From NCBI RefSeq assembly GCF_048403405.1, contig NZ_CP183129.1: a stretch of 64,000 nt of DNA. One strand, given 5' to 3'. A model generated the notes under the pieces. The model was not told where the DNA came from. It did no database searches and saw nothing but the letters and a program-made list of their open reading frames with translations. The DNA comes from Escherichia coli (lineage in GTDB: Bacteria; Pseudomonadota; Gammaproteobacteria; Enterobacterales; Enterobacteriaceae). Positions 43,423 to 44,792 of the stretch are shown here, piece by piece. The stretch's first letter is position 1, and every line of letters starts with the position of its first letter. Both the position numbers and the translations under genes were made by a program.

Positions 43423-43440
43423 AACTTAGTTCGTTTTAAA

Positions 43441-43468
43441 GATTCTGCAGACACTGTCTGCAGAATTC
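43441..43468. repeat. perfect 11-bp-arm palindrome centred on CAGAC-N3-GTCTG (nanQ/yhcG convergent spacer)
   Basis: ATTCTGCAGAC-ACT-GTCTGCAGAAT; no flanking T-tract; same family as the three units inside yhcG. Confidence 0.7.
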
Positions 43469-43481
43469 GAAACCGCTGAAA

Positions 43482-44609
43482 TTAACGGCGTCTATAGCCT
43501 TCCTCTAGCACCGCCTGTGTTCGAACGAGTTCATCCGCGAGTCGTTTTTCATCAGGTAGTTGCATCTTATATTCGCTCGCCAGAACGGTGTTAGGCAAAC
43601 CAGCCAGTGCATAATACGCTTCGCCGGCTCCTTTCTCTGCACAGAGAACCAGACCGATGGGCGGATTTTCATCCGGTAGTGTCCAGTGCTCTTTGGCGTA
43701 GTTGAGATACATATTCATCTGTCCGGCATCGCTATAGCTGAATTTGCCCACTTTTAGATCGACGATTAGCAGGCAGCGTAAACGGCGGTGGAAAAACAGC
43801 AGATCGACACGAAACCAGTTGTCATCAATGCGTAACCTTCGCTGTCGACCAACAAAGGCAAAATCATCCCCAAGTTCCAGCATGAAATCCATCAGGTGGT
43901 TGATCAGCGCCTCCTCAAAATCAGATTCTGAGTATTCATCTTTCAACTCCAGAAATTCGAGCACAAAGGGATCGCGTATCGCCTGTTGCGGAAGAATATG
44001 CATCTCGGCAGGAGCGTGTTGTTGCAGCATGGCTGATTTATCATGTGACAGTAGTGTTCGCTCATAAAATTGGGTCGCAATTTGCCGCTCTAGCTGGCGG
44101 ACAGACCAACCACAGCGGAGCGTTTCTTTTTCATAAAAGCTGCGGGCGTCAGCGTTTTTAACGGAAAGTAGACGGACGTAGGTGGACCAGGGCAGGGGGA
44201 AAGATTTGGCAGACAGCGTCTGCCAAATCTTTGCCGATGGGAATTCTGCAGACGGTGTCTGCGGCATTCCCAATGGTGTTAATTCGCCAGACACTGTCTG
44301 GCGAATTTCAACATGTTGAAAAAAGAGGTAAAAAAGCCTCATTTGGCGTAAGTTTTTTGCAGAGAACCCACGCTTATACCTTAGACTTAAATCCTTTGAT
44401 AGTCGCTTGATTAGCTGCGCACCATACGCAGCCCTGGCCTCGCCACCTTGTTCAAATTCGACAATTCGTCGGCCAATTTCCCAGTATGTCGCGGTCATCA
44501 GCGCGTTAACGCTACGTACCGTTTCCGTCCGGGCGCTATCGACCAGGTGAATAATACCGTCGTGGATTTGCTGGTAGCCTGTTGAGGTTCTCTCTGAGAG
44601 CGATTCCAT
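43482..44609 (-). CDS. yhcG: DUF1016 (YhcG-family) protein with predicted PD-(D/E)XK nuclease fold
   Basis: 375-aa ORF, N-terminus MESLSERTSTGYQQIHDGIIHLVDSARTE; C-terminal region has nuclease-like D...ELK motifs (IVDLKVGK). Confidence 0.85.
   Translation of the reverse strand: MESLSERTSTGYQQIHDGIIHLVDSARTETVRSVNALMTATYWEIGRRIVEFEQGGEARAAYGAQLIKRLSKDLSLRYKRGFSAKNLRQMRLFYLFFQHVEIRQTVSGELTPLGMPQTPSAEFPSAKIWQTLSAKSFPLPWSTYVRLLSVKNADARSFYEKETLRCGWSVRQLERQIATQFYERTLLSHDKSAMLQQHAPAEMHILPQQAIRDPFVLEFLELKDEYSESDFEEALINHLMDFMLELGDDFAFVGRQRRLRIDDNWFRVDLLFFHRRLRCLLIVDLKVGKFSYSDAGQMNMYLNYAKEHWTLPDENPPIGLVLCAEKGAGEAYYALAGLPNTVLASEYKMQLPDEKRLADELVRTQAVLEEGYRRR
44200..44307. repeat. three tandem hairpin-forming palindromic units inside the yhcG coding sequence
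   Basis: Units at 44200-44232, 44234-44276 and 44281-44307, each with arms ending in CAGAC, a 3-nt centre, and GTCTG; arms differ between units but stay self-complementary. Confidence 0.7.
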
Positions 44610-44792
44610 TATCTGTCCCTTTATATGGCGCTGTGTTGAATAATGGAATCAGCTATACGCCGGGCATCTGCCGGTAACAATCCAGATGTGCGTATTACAT
44701 TGGTTTTCTTCAGATTATGCGAGGCGCTTTCCAGTACGAAAGGAGAATTTCAGCGCCGACTCTTTTCTGAGGAGGCGGCGCTGGGACAGAGC

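Follow-up and report, generated by a model that had tools for sequence, protein, structure and literature searches.

In the 64,000-nucleotide stretch of Escherichia coli DNA analysed here (contig NZ_CP183129.1; hereafter the window, numbered from its first nucleotide), the gene yhcG carries three short palindromes in frame within its coding sequence and a fourth immediately past its stop codon. These units belong to a palindrome that recurs at one codon position in nearly all genes of the YhcG/DUF1016 family, across bacterial phyla, in which the complementarity of the arms, and not the peptide that they encode, is conserved, and in which the symmetry of the DNA dictates part of the YhcG sequence. 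That the conserved entity is a DNA-level, strand-symmetric palindrome maintained family-wide is, in our judgement, very nearly certain. We found no earlier description of a YhcG/DUF1016 palindrome in the literature searched.

Four palindromic units at the yhcG locus

The pattern CAGAC-N3-GTCTG (CAGACNNNGTCTG) has four matches in the 64 kb versus 0.07 expected, a count of four being reached in none of 100 shuffles, and allowing one mismatch in the pattern brings to light no further real copy in the window. All four matches lie at yhcG (43482-44609, minus strand, 375 aa; annotated as yhcG by RefSeq). Folded as single-stranded DNA, the four units reach -10.9 to -18.5 kcal/mol (z -5.3 to -9.2), and not one of 200 shuffles folds as well. 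These figures bear out the claim of an earlier note on this DNA, made from the sequence alone, that the four palindromes are real.

In coding order, unit 1 (44281-44307, minus strand; EIRQTVSGEL) is the perfect palindrome AATTCGCCAGAC-ACT-GTCTGGCGAATT, with a folding energy of -12.8 kcal/mol (z -7.3); it directly follows helix alpha-4 of the N-terminal domain and is the counterpart of the first unit present throughout the family, which is usually perfect. Unit 2 (44238-44272, minus strand; GMPQTPSAEFP) is imperfect, with arms ATTCTGCAGAC and GTCTGCGGCAT that contain two mismatches and with a 7-bp outer stem (GGGAAT/ATTCCC); its stem is made up of eight inner pairs (including a G·T), a mismatch and seven outer pairs, and it is a degenerate tandem duplicate. 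Unit 3 (44200-44232, minus strand; peptide AKIWQTLSAKSF), of sequence AAAGATTTGGCAGAC-AGC-GTCTGCCAAATCTTT, is perfect with 15-bp arms (-18.5 kcal/mol, z -9.2). For units 1 and 3 the earlier note had given the same limits and the same description, including the perfect 15-bp arms of unit 3; its span for unit 2, 44234-44276, was close, and rightly called imperfect, but is best replaced by the one above. The three in-gene units follow one another with a 39-nt period, in frame in yhcG, and hence encode a 13-aa peptide repeat and not the repeat of about 11 aa that had been proposed.

The fourth unit, ATTCTGCAGAC-ACT-GTCTGCAGAAT, is real and perfect, and occupies 43442-43466 and not 43441-43468 as first given; it can be drawn either with 11-bp arms and a 3-nt loop or with 12 bp and a 1-nt loop. 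It starts 16 nt past the yhcG stop codon, between the convergent genes nanQ (yhcH) and yhcG, and has no T-run. Identity between this post-stop unit and the in-gene units is 72-79%, and about 15 nt of the 5' flank of the latter, namely the part encoding FQxxxI, recur beside it; in a read-through allele (P0023) the post-stop unit is translated as RILQTLSGES. The shared flank together with this translation indicates that it derives from a gene-internal unit. It is present as well in the Escherichia loci L005, L006, L015 and L030, and shows a compensated change from CTG/CAG to CTC/GAG between lineages.

A palindrome at one codon position across the family

A scan of one genome per species yielded 80 loci of 40-97% protein identity from at least eight phyla (Enterobacteriaceae, Burkholderiaceae, Propionibacteriaceae, Bifidobacteriaceae, cyanobacteria, Chloroflexota, Planctomycetota, Acidobacteriota, Verrucomicrobiota, Bacteroidota and Pasteurellaceae). 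In nearly all of these YhcG orthologues, a palindrome of 21-35 nt and of the form ATT-NNN-CAGAC-NNN-GTCTG-NNN-AAT is found 260-330 nt into the gene; in approximately 75 of the 80 it measures 25-33 nt and starts from about 270-330 nt. Every unit is in codon phase 0, and a unit is present even in the locus of 40% identity (L083). Perfect 11/11 hairpins number 70 among 309,152 centres and are almost all located at the yhcG unit site. Across the family, the arms measure 11-16 bp and the centre 1-5 nt. The middle NNN varies by lineage in a compensated manner (GTG/CAC, TTC/GAA, CGG/CCG, TGC/GCA, GCG/CGC, TCG/CGA, CCG/CGG, CTC/GAG, TGG/CCA), and compensated changes affect the core too, as with GGAATC/GATTCC in Bifidobacteriaceae, CAGAT/ATCTG in Gemmataceae, CCCGAC/GTCGGG in Phycisphaerales and GAGAC/GTCTC in L065.

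At the protein level, all YhcG homologues (349-391 aa) contain at least one EI-x-QT-x-S-x-E unit after the FYLxFQxIE helix, in one to four copies, and E. coli strains themselves vary between one, two and three units. The earlier suggestion that the 33-aa block is an insertion is thus right for the extra units, which are lineage-specific tandem duplicates (1-4 copies), but not for one unit, which is ancestral; the universality of that unit, at a fixed position in DUF1016_N, agrees with the co-evolution with the N-terminal half of YhcG proposed at the same time.

We also assembled an unbiased distant sample, consisting of 16 plasmid-borne DUF1016 homologues of 26-41% identity retrieved by tblastn. 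A palindrome stands at the same place in 14 of the 16, with unrelated cores such as GTGAC/GTCAC, CAACA/TGTTG and GCCACAG/CTGTGGC; examples are CAATTGTCGTGAC-GCT-GTCACGACAATTG, translated as PIVVTLSRQL, GTTGCGCAACAG-G-CTGTTGCGCAAC, translated as VAQQAVAQL, and AATTATGCCACAG-T-CTGTGGCACAATT. Given that the palindrome keeps a fixed place in distant homologues, the DUF1016 motif IVQQxVAQLPW / IVxTLSRQLSW is its translation. According to the earlier note, distant orthologues with the same peptide and no palindromic DNA would have spoken against a functional nucleic-acid element; the opposite was found, the palindrome being kept even where the peptide has changed. A peptide-pattern scan of viral contigs for distant homologues returned a single locus.

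The 25-nt pattern was found at 38 loci in viral contigs, 22 of them inside DUF1016 genes of only 30-50% identity and 16 outside DUF1016 open reading frames (ORFs); among these 16, three are remnants of yhcG homologues and some others resemble ordinary hairpins or terminators. Bare extragenic copies accompany the gene in several lineages, at -105 in Pseudanabaena, at -67 in Rhodococcus, just past the stop codon in Escherichia (16 nt in the window) and at about +60-70 in Gemmataceae, and copies precede the start codon in L129 and L130. Two further loci deserve mention in their own right. In L101 (9938-9985), a stretch with no DUF1016 gene, two adjacent perfect units, ATTCATCAGAC-ACT-GTCTGATGAAT and ATTGGGCAGAC-GTT-GTCTGCCCAAT, are 23 nt apart and so have no common reading frame; the pair lies 16 nt upstream of a gene for a 568-aa large serine recombinase. 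In the Moraxella plasmid L133, a different palindrome, ACTGTGGCAA(A)TTGCCACA, occurs in three copies (504-532, 551-577 and 1583-1603), two upstream and one just downstream of a DUF1016 gene and beside a parB-like gene, and may be an operator or a partition site.

Constraint on nucleotides and not on the peptide

As a null model for pairing, the peptide of each unit was kept fixed and its synonymous codons were resampled from the same gene. The units pair at 10.24 of 11 positions versus 5.37 of 11 under this resampling, with p<=0.01 in 109 of 114 units. Codon choice within the units departs from that elsewhere in the same genes: Ser is encoded by TCT in 104/107 units (9% elsewhere), Ile by ATT in 86/89 (28% elsewhere), and the E/K/Q codon is NAA in all 101 units (38% elsewhere). 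Furthermore, the synonymous third base of codon x2 is predictive of residue x7: of 62 cases with C, 53 have Gly, and of 52 with G, 46 have Ala. Gly accompanies Val GTC and Leu CTC; Ala accompanies Val GTG and, mostly, Leu CTG or TTG. The first base of codon x2 in turn predicts residue x8 (C, E; T, K; G, Q). The residues found at x2, x7 and x8 are those expected from the genetic code and not from side-chain chemistry.

Covariation between the arms was measured on an alignment of 80 distinct units, with 500 shuffles and slid controls. Changes on both sides are observed in 14 of 14 pairs, and the number of cells changed on both sides amounts to 202 versus 83 in the shuffles, none of which reached the observed value. 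The covariation score is 0.451 compared with 0.141 for shuffled and at most 0.113 for slid alignments. What had been noticed on the four units of the window, that the arms differ and yet stay self-complementary and that this points to a nucleic-acid constraint, holds across phyla, with compensated changes.

Strict Watson-Crick pairing on both strands

Altogether, 103 distinct units comprise 980 Watson-Crick pairs and 153 mismatches, the latter divided into 29 G·T, 23 A·C and 101 others. An A·C mismatch on one strand corresponds to a G·U on the antisense strand, and neither wobble type is enriched. Over the 11 core pairs, only 6 cells show a one-sided (wobble-type) change versus 161 changed on both sides. 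The replacement of GAA by GAG, which keeps a U·G pair and gives the codon preferred in GC-rich genomes, is seen in 0 of 101 units; U·G is likewise missing, among 80 units, from the pair that would keep a wobble if GCA became GCG or GGA became GGG. The loop obeys the pattern R-S-Y (AGT, ACT, AGC, GCT, GCC, GGC, ACC, GGT), a set closed under reverse complement. Reverse-complement loops were found in 7 of 33 pairs of units with identical arms versus 11% expected, which is suggestive of loop flipping and too weak for a claim.

An RNA helix, or a hairpin formed by one strand only, should tolerate wobble pairs, so the strict Watson-Crick pairing argues against an RNA helix. Strict pairing devoid of strand bias is what would result from the folding of both strands, as in a cruciform, or from the physical copying of one arm from the other.

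The YhcG protein and the loop encoded by the palindrome

YhcG is a member of the YhcG/DUF1016 family by the presence of both Pfam domains, DUF1016_N (PF17761, aa 19-184, E 1e-41) and the PD-(D/E)XK nuclease domain YhcG_C (PF06250, aa 208-360, E 5e-56). It also matches over its full length (aa 8-370) the PADLOC family PDC-S02 (profile PDLC04807, E 1.9e-135), a family with candidate status in defence. Many sub-models of PDC-S02 are 107-133 aa long and span only YhcG residues ~5-110, i.e. they stop at the unit, which suggests that N-terminal YhcG fragments cut at the palindrome are common in databases, whether as true truncations or as breaks in ORF calling.

A structure of the one-unit allele was modelled with AlphaFold2 from a 97-sequence alignment (confidence, pLDDT, 73; an alignment of 21 close sequences gave only 45). 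In this model, residues 97-114, which include the unit peptide, form a coil with pLDDT below 50 at 104-108, while the flanking helices 84-96 and 115-121 are confident. As predicted by the model, the palindrome encodes a permissive, flexible surface loop of DUF1016_N, preceded by helix alpha-4 and followed by the conserved LPW(S/T)H helix; in the YhcG subfamily the loop reads I-x-Q-T-x-S-x-[EKQ]. A sequence search of the PDB gave no solved relative; the closest structural neighbours of the model are NucS/EndoMS nucleases, in agreement with Kosinski 2005 (PMC1189080), where the YhcG C-domain is related to DUF91 and to junction resolvases, either YraN-like or archaeal.

DUF1016 homologues were encountered in type I restriction-modification operons (L124, L126, L134, L135), beside integrases (L131, L138) and in a defence island that includes Shedu (L139). 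These neighbourhoods agree with the reported enrichment of DUF1016 beside the targets of programmed inversion and inversion-targeted specificity genes (PMC9881135).

Selection for one perfect copy versus arm-to-arm copying

The explanation that we propose has two components. Arm-to-arm copying, by template switching during replication, would supply fast compensated changes, and purifying selection would retain at least one perfect copy per gene as a cis-acting hairpin or cruciform site, a cruciform being a four-way junction in which both strands would fold. Taken as a whole, selection for a cis-acting site included, we hold this explanation tentatively, at slightly less than an even chance.

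The distribution of perfect and imperfect units bears on the selective component. The best unit of a gene pairs at 11/11 in 52 of 75 loci and at 10/11 or better in 70 of 75, while second units are mostly at 8-9/11; of the 55 genes with several units, 41 have their best one in the 5'-most position. A gene typically has one perfect copy, most often the first, and 0-3 decaying tandem duplicates. Among 15 aligned sequences (13 species) of the Paraburkholderia group, 12 have an identical pair of mismatches in the arms of unit 2 (AATGTCC...GGAAAAT), its loop changing meanwhile; identity at synonymous third positions in this group is 94.5% for unit 1, 91.2% for unit 2 and 76.4% for the remainder of the gene. 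As the mismatches of unit 2 persist while unit 1 stays perfect, correction is not fast on that timescale. Our tentative reading of these data is purifying selection for one perfect palindrome per gene, copying between arms probably contributing to the compensated changes.

The sole factor common to all hosts is the product of the gene itself, a nuclease with a predicted fold akin to NucS and junction resolvases, which makes YhcG the likeliest user of the site; even so, its being the actual user is rather doubtful. YhcG would, under such a scheme, bind the hairpin or cruciform in its own gene and thereby limit the expression of a toxic defence nuclease, and breaks at the site would drive the recombinational replacement seen in the hypervariable patch described below. 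We regard as equally speculative the fuller version, in which YhcG would bind or nick the palindrome of its own gene, with supercoil- or infection-sensitive self-regulation, arm correction and turnover of the loop through breaks as consequences.

Several points weigh against the explanation that we propose. Template switching alone could explain both the strict Watson-Crick pairing and the forced codons with no function involved. For kinetic reasons, a cruciform is hard to extrude in vivo from arms of 11-15 bp. Two of the 16 distant homologues (L126, L127) have no good palindrome. The persistence of the unit 2 mismatches might reflect a protein-level constraint on unit 2. Finally, the extragenic copies are sporadic, in about 5-7 lineages over 116 loci, so an operator-type role is not general; an operator in the promoter, with which the copies of L129 and L130 would be compatible, was rejected for this reason.

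The first of these points leads to the main rival, in which an ancestral coding palindrome, lodged in a tolerant loop, is functionless and kept perfect solely by template switching. We consider it unlikely, although it fares better than the other alternatives. Arm copying predicts precisely what is seen, namely pairing that is strictly Watson-Crick, not biased towards wobble and alike for the two strands, and the signature of template switching, with arms changing in concert under strict pairing, is found here (the 202 double-changed cells and, in the core pairs, the 6 one-sided ones). The process, known as quasipalindrome correction (the Ripley model), has precedents: Lavi et al. 2018 (PMC5941160) report that proteobacteria conserve perfect inverted repeats and ascribe this to template switching, which keeps short inverted repeats perfect; homogenisation of arms and inversion of spacers have been reported for yeast coding DNA (PMC8604942), and template switching between inverted-repeat arms is likewise documented in PMC7202029. 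The unit peptide is an unstructured loop in the model, and perfect units are still present in the probable pseudogenes L075 and L078. On the other hand, second units with two mismatches have stayed uncorrected across a genus-level radiation in which unit 1 is perfect, and the same is true of unit 2 in Escherichia. Across phyla, the palindrome has been kept in homologues of 26 to 100% protein identity, and no other perfect coding palindrome with 11-bp arms was seen in ~280 kb of flanking sequence. Moreover, a quasipalindrome in gltD, AACGCTATATCA-AT-GATAAAGCGTT (ERYINDKAF), located about -1220 to -1290 from yhcG in L007, L009, L010, L013-L015, L030 and L048, is conserved across Enterobacteriaceae with the same internal mismatch in every genus, a coding example that was left uncorrected.

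A hairpin in the messenger RNA

The earlier note had listed mRNA structure among the possible roles of the units. A hairpin acting in cis on the transcript could be a translational pause site, a processing site for RNase III or another enzyme, or an internal attenuator yielding an N-terminal fragment. The unit is indeed transcribed within the coding sequence, the hairpin would be very stable, and N-terminal-only fragments are common among annotated proteins and PADLOC sub-models. This alternative is nonetheless improbable, and its place in the earlier list is hard to maintain: wobble is tolerated on neither strand, the G·U-keeping synonymous changes detailed above never occur, G·T and A·C mismatches are about as frequent as each other, and copies exist outside the coding part of the transcript, upstream of the start codon in L129 and L130. 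A scan of the region against Rfam at E<=10 returned noise only, the best E value being at least 1.9 and far under the gathering scores, and a scan for terminator and promoter consensus sequences called none of the four units, after which there is no T-run. An intrinsic terminator was rejected on these last grounds, and a cis-regulatory RNA of Rfam type was rejected for want of a covariance-model match and because the strong covariation is not accompanied by wobble enrichment.

Breakpoints, mosaic exchange and recombination

The unit site is a hotspot of REARRANGEMENT and exchange. A truncated yhcG allele is carried by 726 of 5,426 complete E. coli genomes (~13%), including BL21, in which 470 nt of unrelated sequence have taken the place of everything between the nanQ stop codon and the outer edge of unit 3 (44204), so that the gene survives only as an N-terminal fragment. 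The replacement segment (L001, 2531-3000, in place of 43423-44203 of the window) removes the C-terminal two-thirds of yhcG and the post-stop unit, and its junction falls exactly at the palindrome edge. It encodes an ORF of 101 aa, labelled transposase in RefSeq, with no match in Pfam or NCBIfam; the segment is single-copy and clonal, on which grounds its mobility was rejected.

Around the units, a hypervariable mosaic patch (44079-44379, minus strand, about +230 to +530 nt of yhcG) is 43-88% identical between E. coli alleles, compared with 97-100% for the rest of the gene (window versus L003, L006 and L015). Two types of helix alpha-4, NLRQMR and NLWQ[FI][KR], are common to Escherichia, Salmonella, Citrobacter and Pseudocitrobacter, and the patch together with these cross-genus types points to imported patches or to diversifying selection. 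In viral contigs, 180-nt remnants of a yhcG homologue retain the units, ~70 nt beyond them and the last 36 nt of the gene, and homology stops at the palindrome. Two such remnants of 179 nt (L118, 4686-4864 and 6008-6186) flank a two-gene module that comprises a SocA-like antitoxin and, upstream of it, a gene for a 544-aa protein with no NCBIfam match; the module adjoins a tyrosine integrase in a low-GC viral contig, and remnants are found also in L097 and L121.

The units could accordingly be conceived as recombination sites, either att-like or crossover sites for integrases or sites for the exchange of C-terminal nuclease modules. Besides the breakpoints at palindrome edges and the mosaic patch, the post-stop copy brackets the C-terminal module in Escherichia, DUF1016 is immediately preceded by an integrase gene in L131 and L138 and has one in its vicinity in L127 and L118, the units of L101 precede a serine recombinase gene, and DUF1016 occurs beside programmed-inversion targets (PMC9881135). 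Against this, among the 5,426 complete E. coli genomes there is no inversion junction and no clean deletion junction but only the replacement allele, a single-copy clonal event; as no allele is inverted, the locus is not a phase-variable switch. The integrase-DUF1016 island of L139 has no flanking palindrome copy, most loci lack a second copy, and no recombinase was seen at the E. coli locus or in most loci within 1.5-kb flanks, which were not systematically annotated. An invertible or excisable segment was set aside since there is no alternative orientation, no excision junction and no consistent neighbouring recombinase, and a role as recombination site is about as improbable as one in the messenger RNA.

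Comparison with known palindromic elements

The mobile unit or miniature repeat envisaged in the earlier note, which here would be an in-frame insertion of the repetitive extragenic palindromic (REP), miniature inverted-repeat transposable element (MITE) or Rickettsia palindromic element (RPE) type, is largely refuted and very improbable. It could draw on the occurrence of units inside and outside coding sequences and on the ~16 viral matches outside DUF1016 ORFs. However, the element is not dispersed: the four copies of the window are all at yhcG, and the number of palindrome places per E. coli genome is 1-6 (median 3), consistent with the yhcG locus plus DUF1016 paralogues. At least one unit is found at the same position and codon phase in essentially all homologues and is therefore ancestral, and several of the extragenic viral copies are remnants of deleted yhcG homologues. 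Dispersed repeats of the REP/bacterial interspersed mosaic element (BIME), MITE and RPE classes were rejected for these reasons. The weakest alternative, a purely protein-level repeat whose DNA is palindromic by chance, can appeal to the presence of the motif (IxQTxSxE, IVQQxVAQL, IVxTLSRQL) family-wide and within the Pfam DUF1016_N model, but is refuted by the codon analysis, in which the same peptides would pair at 5.4/11 instead of 10.2/11 and a synonymous base predicts the partner amino acid.

REP/BIME elements resemble the YhcG unit in being perfect or imperfect palindromes of ~25-35 nt that can be arranged in tandem, and one YhcG copy lies between convergent genes; they differ by their consensus, their hundreds of copies per genome and their extragenic location. 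Coding-region cis-regulatory RNA hairpins and intrinsic terminators share with it stable stem-loops and covarying arms, whereas the YhcG unit has no G·U tolerance, U-tail, strand preference or Rfam family. Clustered regularly interspaced short palindromic repeats (CRISPR) were discarded because the units are only 72-79% identical, are 6-14 nt apart and lie inside a coding sequence; Tandem Repeats Finder called no tandem array, the units being too diverged.

In the hairpins of integron attC sites, of IS200/IS605 and of REP with their associated tyrosine transposases (REP-RAYT), the folded structure matters rather than the sequence of the arms, which covary freely. Such sites display conserved extrahelical bases or asymmetry, act on one strand and are served by tyrosine or HUH enzymes encoded nearby. 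The YhcG unit, in contrast, is symmetric and inside a gene, and its sole constant neighbour is a PD-(D/E)XK nuclease. The Rpn family studied in the Storz laboratory reportedly provides another case of in-frame repeats in defence-linked nuclease genes, with a copy number that varies between strains, and resembles yhcG in these three respects, strain variation within one species included; the Rpn repeats are said to be 4-aa units of a dimerisation helix and have not, reportedly, been described as palindromic DNA.

The inverted repeats attributed to template switching in PMC5941160 resemble the YhcG unit in being short, kept perfect over evolutionary time, changed in concert in both arms and strictly Watson-Crick, and the same proximate mechanism is proposed for them. 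Those cases are non-coding and were compared among related proteobacteria, while the YhcG unit is in frame, keeps one codon position across phyla and persists down to 26% protein identity; it moreover dictates amino acids, and its sister copies in the gene stay uncorrected. RPEs (Ogata et al. 2000, as cited in PMC4316617) are likewise palindromic DNA translated in frame in a surface-exposed, permissive region. They measure 100-150 nt and are lineage-specific insertions dispersed over many unrelated genes and intergenic DNA, while the YhcG unit measures 25-33 nt, is confined to one family, is ancestral and is not dispersed.

Locus of yhcG in the window

The region is 100% identical to that of E. 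coli strain TUM14771. The plus strand reads nanE-nanK-nanQ (yhcH), followed by yhcG on the minus strand and by gltD and gltB. A gap of 184 nt (44610-44792) separates yhcG from gltD, and yhcF, yhcE and yhcD, which precede yhcG in L004, are absent from the present strain, as is the gltF-yhcADEF cluster of K-12. At the minus-strand 5' end of yhcG (44602-44650), an inverted repeat with perfect 11-nt arms, GATTCCATTAT / ATAATGGAATC, 27 nt apart, would in the mRNA pair the yhcG start codon with the 5' untranslated region (UTR), the loop then containing the Shine-Dalgarno sequence; the repeat is kept in Escherichia loci, with a fold z-score of only -1.0. In K-12, an antisense or divergent RNA, G0-10703, is reported to overlap the yhcG 5' UTR (PMC7967276).

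Significance for the YhcG/DUF1016 family

The YhcG/DUF1016 family, whose function is unknown, is very widespread, and its members are frequent in type I restriction-modification operons, in defence islands, on plasmids and in phages. Our analysis changes the reading of its best-known motif (IVQQxVAQLPW, IVxTLSRQLSW, IxQTxSxE), which reflects a DNA palindrome and not a protein-level requirement. It provides a rare and clean natural case of DNA secondary-structure symmetry overriding codon usage and dictating amino acids across phyla, and a natural test bed for distinguishing selection on DNA structure from homogenisation by template switching, a question left open by earlier work on bacterial inverted repeats. 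If YhcG does recognise its own palindrome, yhcG would be a gene whose protein sequence is partly set by its own cis-acting DNA target.

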